Of a DNA stretch of 8,475 nucleotides, positions 1 to 8,379 are shown in pieces. Location of the stretch: the IMG/VR virus record IMGVR_UViG_2648501235_000008; one strand, 5' to 3'. Both the position numbers and the translations under genes were made by a program. The stretch's first letter is position 1, and each line of letters opens with the position of its first letter. Origin of the DNA: a virus. Its lineage: Duplodnaviria; Heunggongvirae; Uroviricota; Caudoviricetes. The notes below the pieces were generated by a model. That model had not been told where the DNA came from. It worked only from the letters and a program-made list of their open reading frames with translations, and did no database searches.

Positions 1-112
1 AGTCGCTGTCGTTCTCAAAATCGGTGGAGCTGCATGACAAAGTCATCGGGCATTATCTGAACATAAAACACTATCAATAAGTTGGAGTCATTACCCAAAA
101 CTTAAAAATGGA

Positions 113-1444
113 ATGCAGAAATACATTGATATTTCTCTTTGTTTGAATTTGGCTTTGTTAGATTTAAATGTCATTTTAGGTGATAAAGAGCCACAAAATA
201 GAGCTTTGGAAGGTTTGAAATCTTTAATTAAACAGTCCGATGGAATGTCTGTTCTAATTGAAAGATTTAGAAGCAGTAATTTGATTCGTCATAATCTAGT
301 GTCTTGGCCTTTAGCTAACTATACTAAATATAAAGGAGATCTTACTGAGGAGAATTTATACAGTAAGATGCATGGTATTCCACTTGATAATGATAAATTA
401 AATAAAACCCCTAGATATATTCATGCTGATGAAAAGCAGCTTTTCGATTTGATTGATGCTCTTCATACAAGAAAACTACATAAGTTTACGCATGAAAATA
501 AGCATCACTTAAAAAATTGCTCTGTTACTAAGATAAAAGATAATAAAGCTCTTGAAATAAAGGTAGGAATTGATGATAGAAGTGGTAATGACACAATAAA
601 AGTTGCGTTGGCAAATATGAGAGTTGAACGTCGTAATATTGAAAGTGCTTGCAGAAAAGATCAGTCTCCAAATTTAAGTTATGAACGACAAAGAAACCTT
701 TATCGTATTCTCAACTCGGCAACTGAAGAAAATGTGCAGATATTACTACTCCCTGAGTTATCAATTCCTGTGTCGTGGTTACCTTTTATGGCAGCACATT
801 CAAGGAGAAAACAAATATCTTTGATTTTCGGATTAGAGCATTGGGTTATTAACGAACGCGCATATAATATTTTGGTTGAAATGCTGCCTTATACTTCAAA
901 CTTTAAACACAAATCCAGTATGTTAGTTTTTCGAGTGAAAAATCATTACGCACCTAGTGAGATTACGATGCTGAATTCTTTAAGGTTAAAAATATCCTCT
1001 CCTAAACCTAGTAAACAACGGTATCATTTGATTAAGTGGAAAAACGTATCATTTTCTACATACAACTGTTTTGAACTGGCTAATATCGAGCATAGAGCAT
1101 TATTTCGTTCGCAGTTGGATATTTTATTTGCTTGCGTATGGAATCAAGATATAAATTATTATCAACATATCACTGAGTCAGCGACACGGGATTTACATTG
1201 TTATGTGGCTCAATCAAATACTTCGCATTATGGCGGTTCTTGTGTTCTACAACCGACCAGTAGCACTATTTCAAATAAGATATATGTAAAAGGTGGGGAA
1301 AACCATTGCATCCTAACTACTACTTTAAATATATATGCATTGAGAGAGGCTCAATATCGTTCATTCAGAATTAACTCCGATACTATTAAACACAATCCTC
1401 CAGGGTTTGACTATAATGCTCTATTAGAGCGAGGTGAGAAATGA
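113..1444 (+). CDS. Hypothetical 443-aa protein: unassigned N-terminal region (about aa 1-190) plus C-terminal carbon-nitrogen hydrolase (nitrilase-superfamily)-like domain; candidate defense effector
   Basis: Long ORF in the only AT-rich stretch of the window. Manual motif reading: hydrophobic strand then LLLPE (E215, nt 755-757); ISLIFG strand; FRVKNHYAPSE (K276 nt 938-940, E283 nt 959-961); FSTYNCFE (C319 nt 1067-1069); DILFACVWN; YVAQSN...GGSCVLQP. Order and spacing fit the nitrilase-superfamily E-K-E-C tetrad. No convincing SD before ATG 113, so the start is uncertain. Stop overlaps the next start (ATGA at 1441-1444). Confidence 0.7.
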   Translation: MQKYIDISLCLNLALLDLNVILGDKEPQNRALEGLKSLIKQSDGMSVLIERFRSSNLIRHNLVSWPLANYTKYKGDLTEENLYSKMHGIPLDNDKLNKTPRYIHADEKQLFDLIDALHTRKLHKFTHENKHHLKNCSVTKIKDNKALEIKVGIDDRSGNDTIKVALANMRVERRNIESACRKDQSPNLSYERQRNLYRILNSATEENVQILLLPELSIPVSWLPFMAAHSRRKQISLIFGLEHWVINERAYNILVEMLPYTSNFKHKSSMLVFRVKNHYAPSEITMLNSLRLKISSPKPSKQRYHLIKWKNVSFSTYNCFELANIEHRALFRSQLDILFACVWNQDINYYQHITESATRDLHCYVAQSNTSHYGGSCVLQPTSSTISNKIYVKGGENHCILTTTLNIYALREAQYRSFRINSDTIKHNPPGFDYNALLERGEK

Positions 1445-2130
1445 GTAGCTTTTGGGAAGGTATTTTGTCATCAAGCATTTCATTTGCAATTATTGGATTT
1501 GTTTGTAAGGCTTTTTTACAACATATTGATAAAAGAGAGTTAGAATCATTTAAAAATAAGTTGAAATATGAAAGTGAACAGAGAATTAAAGAGGATGAAC
1601 GTGCTTATAATTTTAAAAAAGCAAGAGATCTTGAAATCGGACGTTGGGGGTTAACATTACTTAGTGCTGCAAATGGTTTTTTAGGAAGGCTATGTTATAT
1701 TAAAGATCACAATGACCTATCGTCGGATCAATATTATATTGATAGTACAAGATTCTATCTATGCCAATATTTTTGCTGGGTACATCAATTCAGGAAAAAT
1801 AGAGATTCATCTGTATTTTCACCAACTAATGATGAAATGTTAATAACTGAATTAATCAAAAATATTTCTATAGCCCTACGAGAGAACGATATTGGTTTTC
1901 CTTGTATTAGATCTCTTGAACAAAAGTATATAGGTGAAAGCCTTAGCATTGGTGCTGAATGTATGTCCTATAAAGATTTTATCGATTCTAAAGTATTAGA
2001 AAACTATGCACCTCTAAATGATTTTGTTGAAGCAATTCTACAAAATAATAATAAAGATTATATCGATAAACTCGTTATCCCATTCCAAGATCTCAAGACC
2101 AGATTTGATGCGGCATTACAAAATAAATGA
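1441..2130 (+). CDS. Hypothetical 229-aa protein with N-terminal hydrophobic membrane-anchor-like segment; operon partner of the upstream gene
   Basis: ATG at 1441 overlaps the upstream TGA (ATGA). Good SD GAGG at 1431-1434, 6 nt before the ATG. Residues about 6-27 (WEGILSSSISFAIIGFVCKAFL) are hydrophobic, followed by a charged, probably helical region. Same AT-rich composition as the upstream gene. No recognisable catalytic motif. Confidence 0.65.
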   Translation: MSSFWEGILSSSISFAIIGFVCKAFLQHIDKRELESFKNKLKYESEQRIKEDERAYNFKKARDLEIGRWGLTLLSAANGFLGRLCYIKDHNDLSSDQYYIDSTRFYLCQYFCWVHQFRKNRDSSVFSPTNDEMLITELIKNISIALRENDIGFPCIRSLEQKYIGESLSIGAECMSYKDFIDSKVLENYAPLNDFVEAILQNNNKDYIDKLVIPFQDLKTRFDAALQNK

Positions 2131-2148: not shown

Positions 2149-2167
2149 ATGCTCTCCCCGCCTCGCC
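2149..2167. other. cos cohesive-end core of P2/P4 type
   Basis: Minus strand of 2149-2167 reads GGCGAGGCGGGGAGAGCAT, 17 of 19 identical to the P2/P4 cohesive end GGCGAGGCGGGGAAAGCAC as I recall it. It sits just beyond the psu stop, where P4 carries cos. Confidence 0.55.
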
Positions 2168-2190
2168 CGCCCGCTTTGCGGGGCGGTTTT
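2165..2190 (+). terminator. GC-rich bulged hairpin followed by TTTT, terminator-like, overlapping the cos region
   Basis: gcccgcccgc-ttt-gcggggcgg then tttt (2187-2190), 35 nt after the ORF2 stop. The stem has one bulge. It may instead be part of the cos recognition region. Confidence 0.3.
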
Positions 2191-2212
2191 AATGCAGTTG
2201 CACTGACACGCT

Positions 2213-2240
2213 CAGACCGCGCCGGGAATGGCGCGGTCTG
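2213..2240. repeat. Perfect 11-bp inverted repeat with 6-nt loop
   Basis: cagaccgcgcc (2213-2223), loop gggaat, ggcgcggtctg (2230-2240). No flanking T-tract on either strand. Possibly a cos-flanking terminase recognition element or an RNA stability hairpin. Confidence 0.5.
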
Positions 2241-2270
2241 CAGAAAATGAGGCAGGGAAACGCATGCAAA

Positions 2271-2301
2271 GCCATGCACCTTATCGATGCATGGCTTTTT
2301 T
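2271..2301 (+). terminator. Rho-independent terminator between the convergent cargo operon and psu
   Basis: Stem gccatgca (2271-2278), 9-nt loop, tgcatggc (2288-2295), then TTTTTT (2296-2301). An A-run upstream (2268-2270) gives partial bidirectional character. Confidence 0.5.
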
Positions 2302-2331
2302 CAGTAAAAACAGGCGGATTTTCGGGGAATT

Positions 2332-2904
2332 TTACACAGACTGACGTGATGCCAGTTGCGCACTTTTACGCGAAAAAATCATGTTCTGCGCAGGGGTGAA
2401 TTTTTCACGGCTGTCATCCACCGAAGCCGCGTCAGGCCTGAATCCGATGGTCGTTAAAATGTCGCTATCCTGTGCGGAATAATTAATTTTTTCACCCTTC
2501 GCAAGCCAGGACAGGAGGGCTTCACGCAGGGCATCTGTGGCACGCTGTATGGCACAGTTTCGGGCAATGGCCGTCAGCTCACTGTAGCCCATCAGCTCCG
2601 GTGCCAGTGCCGCCGCCAGTGCTGTGCCGTGCTGCTGCATAAAATCATTCAGCCGGTCGCGGATGCTGATGTGCTGAACGGCTTCATGCGAACGAATATA
2701 ACGACCGGCAGCCTGATTCACCTGCCATTTTCTGACTTCGATAATATTGCGTAATTCGTCCAGGCGACTGACGTTTCTTCCTTCCCCTGACAGAAGCCGC
2801 AGATATTCCTGTTCGGCCGCAGCCAGCTCATTTTTGCGTTGCAGCCATGCTGCTTTGTTATTCTGACAGGTGTCAAAGGCCTGCTGTAAGGCTGTGCTTT
2901 CCAT
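2332..2904 (-). CDS. psu: Psu, polarity suppression / capsid decoration protein of P4-like satellite
   Basis: 190-aa ORF, the length of P4 Psu. N-terminus MESTALQQAFDTCQNNKAAWLQRKNELAAAEQEYL matches Psu as I recall it. Last gene of a sid-delta-psu arrangement. Confidence 0.9.
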   Translation of the reverse strand: MESTALQQAFDTCQNNKAAWLQRKNELAAAEQEYLRLLSGEGRNVSRLDELRNIIEVRKWQVNQAAGRYIRSHEAVQHISIRDRLNDFMQQHGTALAAALAPELMGYSELTAIARNCAIQRATDALREALLSWLAKGEKINYSAQDSDILTTIGFRPDAASVDDSREKFTPAQNMIFSRKSAQLASRQSV

Positions 2905-2977
2905 CGTTATCTCTTTCTCATCATGCTGAAGAATAAAAATACGGTGTGCGGCGACGGCCGGTGTTAACCGGCAGCCC

Positions 2978-3478
2978 TCATTCCAGACGCAGCGAATATG
3001 ATTGTGTTTTTAAGCGTACTGGCGGCAGTTCCTGTTTTTCATGCAGGCTTTCTGCCAGTTCGTCCGGCGTGACCGGGCGGACAATAAAACGGTTGATGGT
3101 CTGAAGCGTTTTAAACACCAGACCACATCCCGGATCCGTGCACACATAAAAACGCTCGGTGACTTCCTGAGACAGACGCCGCGATGTTCTTGACAGTGCA
3201 AGGCCTTTACATCTCCGACAACAATATCCGGTAACAAGCATTCTTTTCGGGCGTTTCATACTGCCGGAGGCTGACGTCAGTGAATCGCGGTATCTCTGTT
3301 TGCCTGAAATGTATTCCATTCCTGAATCTTTACTGTCAGAGAAAAAGCTTTCACTCGCTTCAAATGTCGCAGAGCAATAAATATTCCGGCACTGTGCAAT
3401 CATTATCTTGGTGCCATCGTCCATGAAATGTGCGCGGCGGGTGTGAGCAACATGTCCACACGACGGGCAGTAAATCAT
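2978..3478 (-). CDS. delta: Delta, late-gene transcriptional activator with tandem Ogr-type zinc-finger repeats
   Basis: 166 aa with two Cys-rich Ogr-like repeats (CPSCG...C...YC and CCRRC...C...GC). Start overlaps the sid stop (ATGA at 3475-3478). Confidence 0.9.
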   Translation of the reverse strand: MIYCPSCGHVAHTRRAHFMDDGTKIMIAQCRNIYCSATFEASESFFSDSKDSGMEYISGKQRYRDSLTSASGSMKRPKRMLVTGYCCRRCKGLALSRTSRRLSQEVTERFYVCTDPGCGLVFKTLQTINRFIVRPVTPDELAESLHEKQELPPVRLKTQSYSLRLE

Positions 3479-4209
3479 GACAGCAGTCCTCTGGCCTTAA
3501 GCACTGCTCCCTGCTGGTCTATTTTGTCCTGCCACACCTTGCGCTGTGCCGGTGTGCCTGCCACCTCATAATCCATGTGAGGAAGTGTTGCCGCTGACAG
3601 TCCGGTCAGCCGGAGAACCGGCTCGCCGGTGAGGCTGATTTGCATCTGTTTAATTTTCTGTTCCAGCGATGATTTCACCTGCTGCATGACAGCCTTTTCC
3701 GGTGCGACGTAGCCCTGATGGCCGGTGGTGTTGGCGAGCGGATTTTCCTGTACCAGAATGCTCAGATGCATTGCCCGGACAAGCGCCTCACAGGTTTCAT
3801 TCAGGGCGTGTTCCAGCTCATGCTCTGCATACAGACTCAGAAGGTGATGATGTGCCTTCCGGTAGGCGGTGGCCGTGCTGTCACACGCCCCTTTCAGGCG
3901 TTCACGTTCGAAATTCAGCACCACGGCCAGATTGTCATATTCCTGTACCAGCTCCCGGCGTGCCACGCGCTCAATGTGGCGCTGTTTCAGCTCGTCGCTC
4001 AGGACACCACCGGCTGCACGAAAGGCCGTGCGCCAGTCGTCAGCGTCGTTTCCGTCGGCCTGCGCCAGCGCATTTTTTTCCTGCTCTGCCCGTTCAATGG
4101 CCGTGACGGTCTCATCCATCAGTCGGGCGTTCTCAAGGTGGGCGGCTCTGGCCTTTTCCAGTTGTGCCAGTGCGGGTTGCAGATATTCAGGGATGGTGTT
4201 GTCAGACAT
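3475..4209 (-). CDS. sid: Sid, external capsid size-determination scaffold protein
   Basis: The track ORF runs to 4275, but the internal ATG at 4207-4209 has a strong SD (GAGGAG, complement of 4217-4222, 7-nt spacing) and gives 244 aa beginning MSDNTIPEYLQPALAQL. Helical, Q/E/A/L-rich. Position upstream of delta fits P4. Confidence 0.85.
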   Translation of the reverse strand: MSDNTIPEYLQPALAQLEKARAAHLENARLMDETVTAIERAEQEKNALAQADGNDADDWRTAFRAAGGVLSDELKQRHIERVARRELVQEYDNLAVVLNFERERLKGACDSTATAYRKAHHHLLSLYAEHELEHALNETCEALVRAMHLSILVQENPLANTTGHQGYVAPEKAVMQQVKSSLEQKIKQMQISLTGEPVLRLTGLSAATLPHMDYEVAGTPAQRKVWQDKIDQQGAVLKARGLLS

Positions 4210-4243
4210 TTTCCGGCTCCTCGTCACTTCAGGTTGAGAAAAT

Positions 4244-4299
4244 TGTGACGTACACCGGACAACAACACGACGCATTGCAGATGTGCCAGCCCTGACACA
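4244..4299. promoter_or_regulatory. Divergent late-promoter region with two TGT-N12-ACA dyads (Ogr/Delta-type activator sites)
   Basis: TGT-gacgtacaccgg-ACA at 4244-4261 (right half extends to ACAACAACA) and TGTG-ccagccctga-CACA at 4282-4299. They lie 35-90 bp upstream of the sid start on the minus strand. Confidence 0.45.
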
Positions 4300-4379
4300 G
4301 GAGACTCATCCTCACACCGGCAAGCCAGGAAAAGGTCGCTGGAAAAAACGGCTTACTGTTTATTTTTTTTATATTTTAC

Positions 4380-4483
4380 TGTTCACCTCTGTTCACCATA
4401 AGAAAAAAGATAAGTAATACAGTAAGTTAAAGGGTGAACAATCGCAGTAATGACTGTTCACCGTCTGTTCACCACTGTTCACC
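4380..4483. repeat. TGTTCACC octamer iteron cluster, P4 ori-type (alpha-protein binding sites)
   Basis: Direct TGTTCACC at 4380-4387, 4390-4397, 4455-4462, 4466-4473 and 4476-4483; inverted copy GGTGAACA at 4433-4440. An AT-rich tract (about 4355-4378) is adjacent. The octamer matches the P4 ori/crr type I iteron as I recall it. Confidence 0.6.
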
Positions 4484-4587
4484 CGTTGATGGGCTTTTTG
4501 TGCTGTTTATTACTGTTTGTTTTTATTAATTCGCCGGGAATGAATAAGAAAAAACGATTTGTATTTCACTATAAAAATTACGAATTG

Positions 4588-4617
4588 CTTTAAGTGGCTT
4601 TAAATGACTTTAAGTGG
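4588..4617 (+). repeat. Three tandem 10-bp repeats upstream of vis
   Basis: CTTTAAGTGG (4588-4597), CTTTAAATGA (4598-4607), CTTTAAGTGG (4608-4617). Candidate regulator binding array; function not determinable from sequence. Confidence 0.5.
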
Positions 4618-4762
4618 AGATGAACAAAAAATACACAAGCATTGTAAGGCTGCCGGAACAAATCCCCCCTGTTGCGTCTGCTGAAAATATTCACAAAATA
4701 AAGCGCTACCCGAAGCCGGACGGACTTATCCGGTGCTGTATGGACATTAACGAGGTAGCCCG

Positions 4763-5029
4763 ATGCAAGCTGTTTTTTCTTCCCCGTCTCCCGCCCCTGT
4801 GACGCCACTGATGCCGCTGCCGGACATCACACAGGAGCGTTTTTTACGTCTTCCGGAAGTGATGCACCTGTGCGGCCTGTCACGCTCGACCATCTATGAA
4901 CTCATCCGTAAGGGGGAATTTCCGCCGCAGGTGAGTCTTGGCGGTAAAAATGTGGCCTGGCTGCACTCTGAAGTCACCGCATGGATGGCCGGGCGCATTG
5001 CCGGACGCAAACGGGGGTACGACGCATGA
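4763..5029 (+). CDS. vis: Vis / AlpA-family helix-turn-helix DNA-binding regulator
   Basis: 88 aa, the length of P4 Vis (orf88). Core [30 protein letters not shown] is a typical AlpA-family HTH. SD GAGG at 4751-4754, 7 nt before the ATG. Confidence 0.85.
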
Positions 5030-5625
5030 TGATGCCCGCTCTGCAAAAACTCCCTTTTTCTGGCTTGCCTTTTTCCGGCATTTGCGGATATAGTTTTTCC
5101 GCTGTCGCAAAATCGGCAGCCGGGCGTGGAAACCCGAGCAATCTAACGGCGACATATGACGCGCCATGCGTCTTTTTTTGTGTCGCAATCAACGCCACAG
5201 AGCGCCAGATTATGGTGTGGTGTGTGGTCAGTCGAGCAGATGGCACTCCGTGCATCCTGCCCGCGTCCGCTCATTATGCCGCAGAGTCAATGGTAGCTCA
5301 GGCGGGGCAGCCTCCGGGCTGGCCGGTATCCGTTAGAGCCGGTATTTCCACCCCCGTCTGGGCTATCGCCATCGAGCGTGGAAACTCCGGCGATAGCGTA
5401 ACCTGCTATCTAACGGAGGCTGCCATCATGGCTACAACCCTTACCCCTTCACACCCTGAATTTGTCTTTGTGTTTGCGGCTGTCCGTCGCGCAGACCGTC
5501 ATCCCCGTATCTGCATGCTTCGCACCGTCGCCGGTGATGAACGCAGTGCCCGCCGTTCCCTTGTCCGTGACTATGTGCTCTCCCTTGCTGCCCGTCTGCC
5601 GGTGGTGGAGGTGTCCCGTGCGTAA
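5026..5625 (+). CDS. 199-codon ORF spanning the immunity region (P4 orf199-like); translation uncertain
   Basis: ATGATGATG at 5026-5034 overlaps the vis stop (ATGA). The length equals P4 orf199 from memory. Composition is weakly protein-like and the frame covers the seqA/B/C-like RNA elements, so it may not be translated as a whole. Confidence 0.3.
5065..5094 (+). promoter_or_regulatory. Candidate sigma70 promoter, PLE-like
   Basis: TTGCCT (5065-5070), 18-nt spacer, TATAGT (5089-5094). Lies just downstream of vis and upstream of the seqA-like element. Confidence 0.3.
5124..5416 (+). ncRNA. Immunity-type region with seqA / seqB / seqC-like elements; candidate cI-type regulatory RNA locus
   Basis: Direct copies of GCGTGGAAAC (5124-5133, 5376-5385) and ATCTAACGG (5141-5149, 5408-5416). 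Between them, 5330-5353 (ccgttagagccggtatttccaccc) is the inverted complement of both blocks (CCGTTAGA / TTTCCAC). A 9-bp hairpin (5362-5370 / 5389-5397) encloses the second GCGTGGAAAC. Precise RNA ends cannot be set from sequence. Confidence 0.4.
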
Positions 5626-5905
5626 TAAAAAAGCCCCTCAGACCGTCTCAGCGCGTCATGACGCCCGTGAACACCTCAGCATTGAGGCTTACCATAAGCT
5701 CAACCGCGCCAGCGCCGTATCCCAGTTTGTTGGGGGTGATTTGATTCACCGTGAACTCTCCGGCCTGCATCAGCTCTACATTCCGCATATTTTCAGCTAC
5801 CTGAATGAAGATATTGATTTTGTGCTGAATGAGCTGAAAGCCAAAGGCCTGTGCCGCGATTTTCTCGCCCAGCAGAAAGACCGGGGAGACAGGACGCATG
5901 TTTGA
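5618..5905 (+). CDS. 95-aa protein in the position of P4 epsilon (derepression protein); identity not established
   Basis: GTG start at 5618 with SD GGAGG (5607-5611, 6-nt spacing). The 52 codons upstream in the track ORF (from 5462) are not protein-like and overlap the preceding ORF. The 3' end overlaps the next start. Confidence 0.45.
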
Positions 5906-6353
5906 TTTTCCCCAGCCCGGTGAGATTTACCGTTCTGCCGGTTTTCCCGATGTGGCCGTGGTCGGCATTCTGGAAGACGGTATTCCGTGGGAAATGCCGT
6001 ACCGCTGTCCGGACATTGTCTGGAACCCGTACCGCCGAAAATTCAGTATCCTTGTGCGTATCCTCACTGACGGGCGCACCACAGACATCCCGCTGGGGCG
6101 TTTTCTGCGGGAATTTACCTGTGACCGTCCTGACCTGTTCAAACGCAGCCCCGTAAACCGGCATGCGGTACTGAAAGAAATGGCCGGAGACCCGGAATTA
6201 CAGAAATGGCGGGAGAAATATCTGGATATTTACCCGCAGGACACTGTTCCGGCCAGCCGGGCGGCACCGGTGGCGCGGGAATGGCGGGAAATTCCCCGCA
6301 CGGAGCCTGACCCGGAAATCACCCCGGATAACAGTTACCGCAATTATCTGTAA
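5898..6353 (+). CDS. 151-aa protein, P4 orf151-like
   Basis: Length equals P4 orf151 from memory. Protein-like composition, same strand and operon as alpha. Start overlaps the upstream stop. Confidence 0.6.
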   Translation: MFDFPQPGEIYRSAGFPDVAVVGILEDGIPWEMPYRCPDIVWNPYRRKFSILVRILTDGRTTDIPLGRFLREFTCDRPDLFKRSPVNRHAVLKEMAGDPELQKWREKYLDIYPQDTVPASRAAPVAREWREIPRTEPDPEITPDNSYRNYL

Positions 6354-6488
6354 TTAAAAAACGACACCCGAAAAATTAAATGTGCGTATTCGCGCAGGGA
6401 TACGCACGTCTTCAGGAGACGCAGATATGCCTTATCAGTTAATGCAACCGGCACGGAATGCAGTCATCTGTCACAGGGAGGAAAACAA

Positions 6489-6809
6489 ATGAAAACACCC
6501 TTACCGCCCGTCTTACGCGCTGCCCTTTACCGTCGCGCTGTCGCCTGTGCCTGGCTGACCGTGTGCGAACGTCAGCACCGCTACCCGCATCTCACCCTTG
6601 AATCACTGGAGGCGGCCATCGCCGCTGAGCTGGAGGGCTTTTATCTGCGCCAGCACGGTGAGGAAAAAGGGCGTCAGATAGCCTGTGCCCTGCTGGAAGA
6701 TTTAATGGAATCCGGCCCCCTGAAGGCCGCGCCGTCGCTGTCCTTTCTCGGGCTGGTTGTGATGGATGAACTCTGTGCCCGTCACATAAAAGCGCCGGTA
6801 CTGCACTGA
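6489..6809 (+). CDS. 106-aa hypothetical protein immediately upstream of alpha
   Basis: Strong SD GGGAGG (6475-6480, 7-nt spacing). Stop lies 14 nt before the alpha start. Confidence 0.55.
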
Positions 6810-6823
6810 AGGAGAACAACACC

Positions 6824-8379
6824 ATGAAAATGAACGTAACCGCCACCGTCAGCCATGCGCTCGGCCACTGGCCGCGTATTCTCCCGGCGCTGGGGATTCA
6901 GGTGCTGAAGAACCGTCATCAGCCCTGTCCGGTCTGTGGCGGGAGTGACCGTTTCCGTTTTGATGACAGGGAGGGGCGCGGCACCTGGTACTGCAATCAG
7001 TGTGGTGCCGGTGACGGCCTGAAACTGGTTGAAAAGGTGTTTGGTGTTTCCCCGTCCGATGCGGCCGCAAAGGTGGCTGCCGTGACCGGCAGCCTGCCCC
7101 CTGCTGACCCGGCAGTGACGGCTGCCGCCGGTGCTGAAACAGACGCTGCCCGGAAGAACGCCGCCGCACTGGCACAAACCCTGATGGCGAAAACCCGTCC
7201 CGGAACCGGTAACGCCTACCTGACCCGCAAGGGCTTTCCCGGCCGGGAATGCCGGATGCTGACCGGCACACACAGAGCCGGTGGCGTGAGCTGGCGTGCC
7301 GGTGACCTTGTGGTGCCACTGTATGACGACAGCGGCGAACTGGTTAACCTTCAGTTAATCAGTGCTGACGGCCGTAAGCGCACCCTGAAAGGCGGACAGG
7401 TCAGGGGCACCTGTCACACCCTTGAAGGACAGAATCAGGCCGGAAAACGTCTGTGGATAGCGGAGGGATACGCGACCGCACTTACCGTGCATCACCTGAC
7501 CGGTGAAACGGTGATGGTGGCGCTTTCTTCCGTGAATCTCCTTTCTCTGGCCAGCCTTGCCCGGCAGAAGCATCCGGCCTGTCAGATTGTCCTTGCTGCT
7601 GACCGTGACCTCAGCGGTGACGGCCAGAAAAAAGCCGCCGCAGCCGCAGGTGCGTGTGAAGGTGTTGTTGCCCTGCCGCCGGTCTTCGGTGACTGGAATG
7701 ATGCCTTCACGCAGTACGGCGGGGAAGCCACCCGTAAGGCCATTTATGATGCCATCCGGCCACCGGCTGAAAGCCCGTTCGACACCATGAGCGAAGCGGA
7801 GTTTTCCGCCATGAGTACCAGCGAAAAGGCCATGCGTATCTATGAGCATTACGGCGAGGCGCTCGCGGTCGATGCCAACGGCCAGCTTCTGTCCCGCTAT
7901 GAAAATGGTGTCTGGAAGGTGCTGCCGCCACAGGACTTTGCCCGGGATGTGGCCGGGCTGTTTCAGCGGCTGCGCGCGCCGTTCTCCTCCGGGAAGGTGG
8001 CCTCCGTGGTGGACACCCTGAAGCTGATTATTCCGCAGCAGGAAGCCCCCTCCCGCCGCCTGATTGGCTTTCGTAACGGCGTGCTCGACACGCAGAACGG
8101 CACGTTCCACCCGCACAGTCCGTCACACTGGATGCGCACCCTGTGCGATGTGGATTTCACCCCGCCGGTGGACGGTGAAACGCTGGAGACCCACGCCCCC
8201 GCGTTCTGGCGCTGGCTTGACCGTGCCGCCGGTGGCCGTGCGGAAAAACGCGACGTGATTCTGGCCGCACTGTTTATGGTGCTGGCAAACCGCTACGACT
8301 GGCAGCTCTTTCTGGAGGTGACCGGTCCCGGCGGCAGCGGCAAAAGTATCATGGCCGAAATCGCCACCCTGCTGGCCGG
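6824..8379 (+). CDS. alpha: Alpha primase-helicase (zinc-ribbon, TOPRIM primase, D5-like helicase with Walker A); 3' part absent or interrupted
   Basis: SD GGAG at 6811-6814. N-terminal zinc motif CPVCGGSDRF...WYCNQCG; TOPRIM-like LWIAEGYATALTV and VLAADRD; Walker A GPGGSGKS at 8327-8346. The frame stays open to 8475, but the expected helicase-like character is lost after 8379. Not in the ORF track because no stop occurs in the window. Confidence 0.85.

Follow-up and report, generated by a model that had tools for sequence, protein, structure and literature searches.

Several anti-phage systems join a reverse transcriptase (RT) to a nitrilase, i.e., a C-N hydrolase domain, and in a minority of their loci a small gene for a transmembrane (TM) protein accompanies the RT gene. 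The closest described relative of the locus studied here is the 'RT-nitrilase + 1TM' system of E. coli E101, represented by construct pFR76 of Rousset et al. 2022 (PMC9122126). In its intact form and from its native promoter, the E101 system confers phage resistance at room temperature (PMC9122126), and RT-nitrilase + 1TM has been described as acting on a podovirus-like phage (PMC13436386). The protein pair WP_024228187 and WP_000094232 is listed as P4 hotspot cargo in Table S1 of PMC9122126, the cos/psu-int hotspot being a variable slot for anti-phage systems in P4-like satellites (Rousset et al. 2022, PMC9122126). In the classification of Mestre et al. 2022, this is a UG5-large system accompanied by a TM protein (clusters 85/1858), and a TM gene lies downstream of 31 of the 299 UG5-large RTs. 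Here, we analyze the second open reading frame (ORF2; positions 1441-2130, plus strand) in 8,475 nucleotides (nt) of a Caudoviricetes virus, IMG/VR record IMGVR_UViG_2648501235_000008; this whole stretch is hereafter called the window. Judged by sequence identity, ORF2 almost certainly encodes the TM subunit (RTasTM or '1TM') of the UG5-large RT-nitrilase + 1TM anti-phage system. The protein is already known as a component of a published, experimentally validated defense system, and it stands in the window beside a partner gene split by the insertion sequence (IS) IS1.

Three other systems frame the comparison. The defense-associated reverse transcriptase (DRT) system DRT1 (UG1), made of Drt1a and the optional Drt1b (structure 9yfd, PMC13275509), likewise combines a class 3 UG/Abi RT and a C-N hydrolase in one fusion protein. 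DRT1, DRT5S, and DRT5L synthesize DNA that is protein-primed, template-free, and covalently attached; in DRT1 these adducts drive assembly into quiescent filaments, the effector role belongs to the nitrilase, and defense takes the form of abortive infection (PMC13275509). RT activity is required in DRT1 for both nitrilase assembly and defense, the RT-dead protein being monomeric, non-toxic, and non-defensive, and the authors speculate that Drt1b may be like the HalA channel, held shut by DNA adducts (PMC13275509). DRT11 (UG5-large) of Sinorhizobium meliloti RMO17 belongs to the same RT-nitrilase fusion family as the partner of ORF2, shows an abortive-infection-like phenotype, and needs both catalytic domains (PMC13436386); it is functional without a TM gene, so UG5-large function does not always involve a TM partner. 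The third system, Hailong, consists of the HalA channel and the HalB nucleotidyltransferase, and its likeness to the locus is one of logic alone, i.e., a membrane protein paired with a constitutive maker of protein-linked, template-free DNA. The contribution of the TM partner to class 3 RT-nitrilase systems, close relatives of which do without it, is a question recognized in the 2022-2026 literature.

The locus in the window agrees with E101 pFR76 in the family of the upstream partner, in an ATGA overlap between the two genes, and in its place in the P4 cos/psu-int hotspot, and differs in that the E101 RT-nitrilase is intact, whereas the copy in the window is split by IS1 at codon 510. ORF2 equals protein 2 of pFR76 at 229 of 229 residues (Table S2A, PMC9122126) and is identical to the annotated WP_000094232.1 of an intact locus (L001), whose gene adjoins that of the 958-amino-acid (aa) RT WP_024228187.1. 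Two PADLOC models of RTasTM match at positions 1-229 of 229, PDLC03013 with an expectation value (E) of 5.2e-164 and PDLC03799 with E = 1.2e-122; scans against Pfam and NCBIfam returned no domain. Compared with DRT1, the RT here is shorter (958 versus 1229 aa) and of a different RT clade, the two matching at E = 6e-9 over the RT core alone. The TM gene is found in a minority of loci in both cases, about 18% for drt1 and the 31/299 given above for UG5-large, and the priming Ser402 is a DRT1 feature not conserved outside DRT1 (PMC13275509). The PADLOC matches of ORF2 at E <= 1 included no model named Drt1b, the presence of such a model in the library not having been independently verified, and the remote relatives of ORF2 gave no Drt1b-named PADLOC match at E <= 0.01-0.1. 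Unlike Hailong, ORF2 has one TM helix and a partner, the RT-nitrilase, whose nitrilase is itself an effector; PDB searches gave no significant match, in sequence or in fold, to HalA or to any other protein.

The cassette contains the following features:

1-95, plus strand: right end of IS1, including the terminal inverted repeat ...GTTGGAGTCATTACC; interrupts the RT-nitrilase gene
96-1444, plus strand: 3' remnant of the UG5-large RT-nitrilase gene, codons 510-958 and the stop
1431-1438, plus strand: Shine-Dalgarno (SD) sequence of ORF2, GAGGTGAG, within the last codons of the upstream frame
1441-1444, plus strand: ATGA overlap of the ORF2 start ATG with the upstream TGA stop
1441-2130, plus strand: ORF2, 229 aa with an ATG start, the RTasTM/'1TM' subunit, equal to WP_000094232.1
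1459-1521, plus strand: single predicted TM helix, about residues 7-27, GILSSSISFAIIGFVCKAFLQ (hydropathy; helix 3-28 of the AlphaFold2 (AF2) model)
1522-1644, plus strand: charged helical stalk, residues 28-68, about 50% D/E/K/R
1645-2127, plus strand: conserved helical-bundle domain, residues 69-229 (alignment; AF2 model)

ORF2 is a real gene, because 229 open codons would be expected by chance with a probability of ~4e-9 (stop probability 0.081 per codon at the local G+C content of 32%) and because its length is preserved in homologs of 45-76% identity. The SD/anti-SD duplex energy is -9.5 kcal/mol, most homologous loci carry a purine-rich SD at the equivalent position, and the ATGA overlap is kept in eight of eight loci examined, at identities down to 45%. 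From the letters of this DNA, a first-pass annotation had described a small membrane partner coupled, by a good SD and an ATGA overlap, to an upstream putative enzyme gene, a pairing it took as suggestive of a defense system; both the signals and the pairing held up, the small protein being the '1TM' subunit. What did not survive is the view of the upstream frame (ORF1) as a putative enzyme standing on its own, as ORF1 is the 3' remnant of an IS1-interrupted RT-nitrilase fusion. Because ORF1 is a remnant and the RT catalytic half is absent from the window, stoichiometric co-expression of a functional pair, also anticipated in that annotation, cannot be assumed; the system is most likely decayed.

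Positions 1-95 are 100% identical over 95 nt to an annotated IS1A end (in L002) and 97% identical to other IS1 copies. From position 96 the remnant matches, at 99.8% DNA identity, the intact gene for the 958-aa protein in L001 (from L001 position 9001), where the gene order is integrase, WP_024228187.1 (annotated as 'RNA-directed DNA polymerase'), the 229-aa WP_000094232.1, and psu. Homology to WP_024228187.1 begins at codon 510, and one R/H difference falls in the nitrilase part. The ATG at 113 taken as the start of ORF1 is the internal Met516 of the 958-aa protein; the frame is open up to the IS1 boundary, and its closing stop lies within IS1. ORF1 matches the PADLOC model RT_UG5-nitrilase PDLC02995 with E = 0 at profile positions 516-958 of 958. 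The remnant comprises the linker and the C-N hydrolase domain and keeps the Glu/Lys/Cys nitrilase motifs (LLPELS, NHYAPSE, and YNCFEL), the Cys aligning with C1116 in the active site of DRT1. The catalytic YVDD of the RT, at residues 298-301, lies beyond the break and is absent from the window. PADLOC RT_UG5_small ends near ORF1 residue 129 and RTasNitrilase starts near residue 159. The idea that the IS1 break re-creates a natural, UG5-small-like split was considered and rejected, since the break falls within the RT-side extension, ~135-160 residues upstream of the natural boundary.

The partner is, in short, represented by codons 510-958 only, which concerns the integrity of the system and not the membership of ORF2 in its family. 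Because RT activity is required in DRT1 and DRT11, and the RT and nitrilase halves are here split by IS1, the copy in the window is, by analogy, probably non-functional for defense. ORF2 itself is intact, keeps its SD, and may be transcribed by read-through from IS1. More generally, stretches of DNA cut off within a gene or an IS element yield false starts for a first ORF such as this one.

Damage to this cassette is recurrent in E. coli, the RT-nitrilase gene having been knocked out in many independent events. Of 5,426 complete E. coli genomes, 33 carry the cassette, and at least 15 of the 33 have a damaged copy. IS1 interrupts the RT gene at three sites, i.e., at codon 510 in the window, near codon 604 in L016 (IS1 copy at 8823-9520), and near the 5' end in L002 (IS1 copy at 5383-6095). 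Other lesions of the RT gene are an ISEc60 (H53) and an internal stop shared by five mouse isolates (L017, 1501-4377), and further damage to the cassette includes 1-nt length changes (H39-41, H52) and two truncations (H57, H58). ORF2 is identical in every carrier where it is present, and it too was lost in two genomes. All inactivating events that can be placed within the cassette fall in the RT gene, which is ~4x as long as ORF2. Selective retention of ORF2 during RT decay was considered and rejected, as target size predicts hits in the RT gene with a probability of about 0.8 per event. IS1 prefers AT-rich DNA, and AT-rich defense cargo in E. coli is often struck by it; target size, possibly together with this preference, can explain the pattern of damage. 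A fitness cost of the RT-nitrilase may lie behind the repeated inactivation. The exact IS1/RT junction of the window, joined to a full P4-like element, was found in 0 of the 5,426 complete genomes, and the arrangement in the window is thus unrepresented in that collection, where the best matches begin at window position 95.

The anatomy of ORF2 also agrees with its first description as a protein with a hydrophobic segment at residues 6-27 that is otherwise charged and helical and has no catalytic motif. The Kyte-Doolittle maximum over 19 residues is 1.94 at residues 8-26, the sole segment of ORF2 above 1.6, and windows above 1.0 span about residues 1-31. The AF2 model, built from an 18-sequence alignment, is all-helical with a mean predicted local distance difference test score (pLDDT) of 87.1, and places one helix at residues 3-28, a long one at 31-89, and then a bundle at 97-228. 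Residues 28-70 hold 12 K/R and 10 D/E, and the length of the stalk varies across the family between 35 and about 94 aa. One N-terminal hydrophobic helix is found in every full-length family member, preceded by an N-flank of 4-23 aa (7 in most) that has 0 K/R in nearly all members and followed by a K/R-rich C-flank. Because of these K/R-poor and K/R-rich flanks (the positive-inside rule), the topology is predicted to be N-out/C-in, which would expose ~200 residues to the cytoplasm, the compartment of the RT-nitrilase.

Conservation is high both in the membrane and beyond the stalk. In the alignment, S12, C22, and K23 of the TM helix are invariant and S10, S11, L15, A16, and G19 are at least 90% conserved, and the helix is Ser/Thr/Gly/Ala-rich throughout the family. 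Such a helix is unusually conserved for an anchor, which suggests that ORF2 is more than a passive one. Arg, Trp, Tyr, Asn, Gln, and Glu occupy many invariant positions in the domain after the stalk, which contains the motifs RWxLTLLSAANGxLGRL, YxCQYxCW, RxxRD, and IRSLEQxYIG. The motifs persist in remote relatives, and across the family they read RWx(N/L)(P/T)xL...NGxxGRL, QYxCW, RxxRD, and (R/F)SL(E/Q)QxxIG(E/D). A Foldseek comparison of the ORF2 model with the PDB gave no match at E < 0.5. A sequence-profile search of the PDB gave only matches to Mdm2 at E of about 0.1, which were rejected as due to chance.

The ORF2 family is rare. A search of a 5.8-billion-protein index found 29 clusters at E <= 1e-3, all from Enterobacterales, and a profile search of 1.84 billion representatives gave 49 matches at E <= 1e-3, including 11 at E <= 1e-10. 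The family was not found in consistent separation from ORF1-like neighbors, a pattern that would have spoken against the pairing: every closer homolog examined (45-100% identity) directly follows an RT-nitrilase gene. The arrangement of an RT-nitrilase gene followed by an overlapping TM gene was seen in eight loci (L001, L003-L006, L008, L010, and L013), and homologs from Pantoea, Pectobacterium, Morganella, Dickeya, Erwinia, and Silvania stand directly after a 957-968-aa RVT_1 protein, usually near an integrase. Among these loci, that of L013 (3156-6004) has its RT gene split into 128-, 169-, and 649-aa pieces beside an intact TM gene, and a Morganella contig (L007, 4979-6004) has an RT gene reduced to a 341-aa remnant, again beside an intact TM gene.

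Remote relatives extend the family to a second gene layout. The protein P0034 (profile E = 2.4e-24) is encoded by the first gene of a four-gene operon (L014, 1393-7217) in the order TM, DnaG-like primase, RT_UG6, and RTasNitrilase. Compared with the arrangement of ORF2, the TM gene in this UG6 system is first rather than last, the RT and the nitrilase are encoded separately, and the operon includes a primase. The TM family is thus common to UG5-large and UG6 systems, and what it associates with is the combination of RT and nitrilase rather than any single gene order. A gene with a Schlafen/AlbA_2 domain lies divergently upstream of the four-gene operon. Two even more distant members of about 300-320 aa with a longer stalk (P0040 and P0046) are each directly followed by a conserved protein of ~210 aa (L012, 317-1908; L015, 114-1740). 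The two ~210-aa proteins are 34% identical (E = 2e-32), show a weak match to DUF7587 alone, and have no PADLOC match; they may represent an RT-free pairing of the TM module, on contigs too short to exclude a nearby RT.

We put a probability of roughly 0.6 on the best explanation taken as a whole, i.e., that ORF2 is the known 1TM subunit, that its partner is an IS1-split copy, and that it acts as a membrane effector. In this scheme, ORF2 would sit in the inner membrane in an N-out/C-in orientation with a very short periplasmic N-terminus, and the charged helical stalk would hold the conserved helical bundle in the cytoplasm. There, the docking partner of the bundle would be either the assembled RT-nitrilase or the template-free DNA that the enzyme carries covalently. 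Upon phage-triggered activation, ORF2 would oligomerize via the conserved Ser/Gly-rich TM helix and damage the membrane barrier, a step that would add to, or execute, abortive infection. The functional part of this explanation, in which ORF2 is an accessory membrane effector controlled by the RT-nitrilase and Hailong-like in logic, draws on analogy and is tentative, somewhat short of an even chance.

Several points weigh against this explanation. The orientation of ORF2 rests on hydropathy and the positive-inside rule, and a protein with one TM helix is a poor candidate for forming a pore. Robust immunity is provided by DRT1 without Drt1b (PMC13275509). Because RT-nitrilase systems work without a TM partner, and a TM gene is present in 31/299 UG5-large loci, the core effector is the nitrilase and not the TM protein. 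The window starts inside IS1, and the 5' half of the RT gene may survive beyond it. Finally, Rousset et al. 2022 label the TM protein an 'effector', and the main text of that paper contains no TM-deletion experiment (PMC9122126). A passage of Mestre et al. 2022 cites Rousset et al. for the TM protein being 'necessary', and a passage of PMC13436386 states at second hand that TM deletion compromises DRT1 defense.

Of the alternatives, the one that survives best makes ORF2 a non-toxic membrane tether or sensor, which would recruit RT-nitrilase filaments to the inner membrane, the entry site of phage DNA, or relay to them an infection cue sensed near the membrane, and leave the nitrilase as sole effector. 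We regard this as possible, if on balance doubtful. It accords with the nitrilase being the demonstrated effector in DRT1 and DRT11 and with TM-less systems being abortive alone; one TM helix, a variable stalk, and a conserved cytoplasmic domain would suit docking at a set distance from the membrane, and the family travels with two RT/nitrilase gene layouts. However, a mere anchor would not be expected to keep an invariant Ser, Cys, and Lys, and the designation 'effector' by Rousset et al., though given without a test, also points the other way.

Considerably less probable is a negative regulator, i.e., a safety or antitoxin-like protein that would keep the RT-nitrilase quiescent until infection. 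Toxin/antitoxin-like pairs typically show the tight translational coupling seen here in the conserved ATGA overlap, and class 3 DRTs need safety mechanisms. Yet DRT1 is kept safe by the DNA adduct and filament of the enzyme itself, no toxicity is reported for TM-less relatives, and it is the RT gene that is broken in E. coli while ORF2 stays intact, though target size alone explains this last pattern. That the 443-aa ORF1 (nitrilase only) and ORF2 form a working two-gene system in the window is hardly credible: separate nitrilase ORFs are natural in UG5-small and UG6, and the remnant keeps its Glu/Lys/Cys motifs and the coupling signals to ORF2, but ATG 113 is an internal Met in a frame closed by IS1 sequence only, all homologs are either ~960-aa fusions or share their operon with an RT gene, the break misses the natural domain boundary, and RT activity is required for nitrilase oligomerization and defense in DRT1 and for defense in DRT11.

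An extension of the membrane-effector explanation is that the RTasTM family is a portable membrane effector gated by the covalent, template-free DNA of class 3 DRTs, perhaps also beyond RT systems, in view of the two remote members (L012, L015) that precede a ~210-aa protein where no RT-nitrilase is visible; this analogy is speculative and in our estimate improbable. If it were true, ORF2-type proteins would be a general single-pass membrane effector, gated by a DNA adduct or by a partner, of several defense systems. For the role of the TM protein, the intact published construct is better suited than the window analyzed here.

The remainder of the window belongs to a P4-like satellite of E. 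coli. Bases 96-2130 have a G+C content of 32%, compared with 56% for the rest of the window, and positions 2168-8379 are 98% identical to satellite phage P4 (X51522, 5414-11624, the record ending at the right cos end). Identity to P4 starts at window position 2168, which corresponds to X51522 position 11624. The low-G+C cassette occupies precisely the gop-beta-cII slot of P4, i.e., the cos/psu-int defense hotspot. As cargo of the hotspot it is flanked within the window by psu, the satellite-side border; the integrase side lies beyond the window, and in two related loci (L001 and L017) an integrase is found directly upstream of the RT gene. The satellite part contains the features below and ends with the start of the alpha primase region.

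2167-2186, plus strand: G+C-rich hairpin followed by a T run, the sole terminator-like site in positions 1-2500
2332-2904, minus strand: psu, polarity suppression protein (Pfam Psu, E = 1.3e-88; 98% identity to P4)
2978-3478, minus strand: delta
3475-4275, minus strand: sid
4763-5029: AlpA-type regulator
5101-5178, plus strand: isrK RNA (Rfam, above gathering score, 72.5 bits)
5286-5373, plus strand: C4 antisense RNA (Rfam, above gathering score, 76.2 bits)
5898-6353: orf151
6489-6809: DUF5375/orf106

The isrK and C4 matches mark the P4 immunity (CI RNA) region of the satellite. A 37-nt spacer, from position 2131, separates ORF2 from the start of P4 homology, and the hairpin at 2167-2186 is likely the terminator of the cassette transcript. 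Within the spacer, tgctctccccgcctcgcc (about 2149-2166) resembles the P2/P4 cohesive end in reverse complement.

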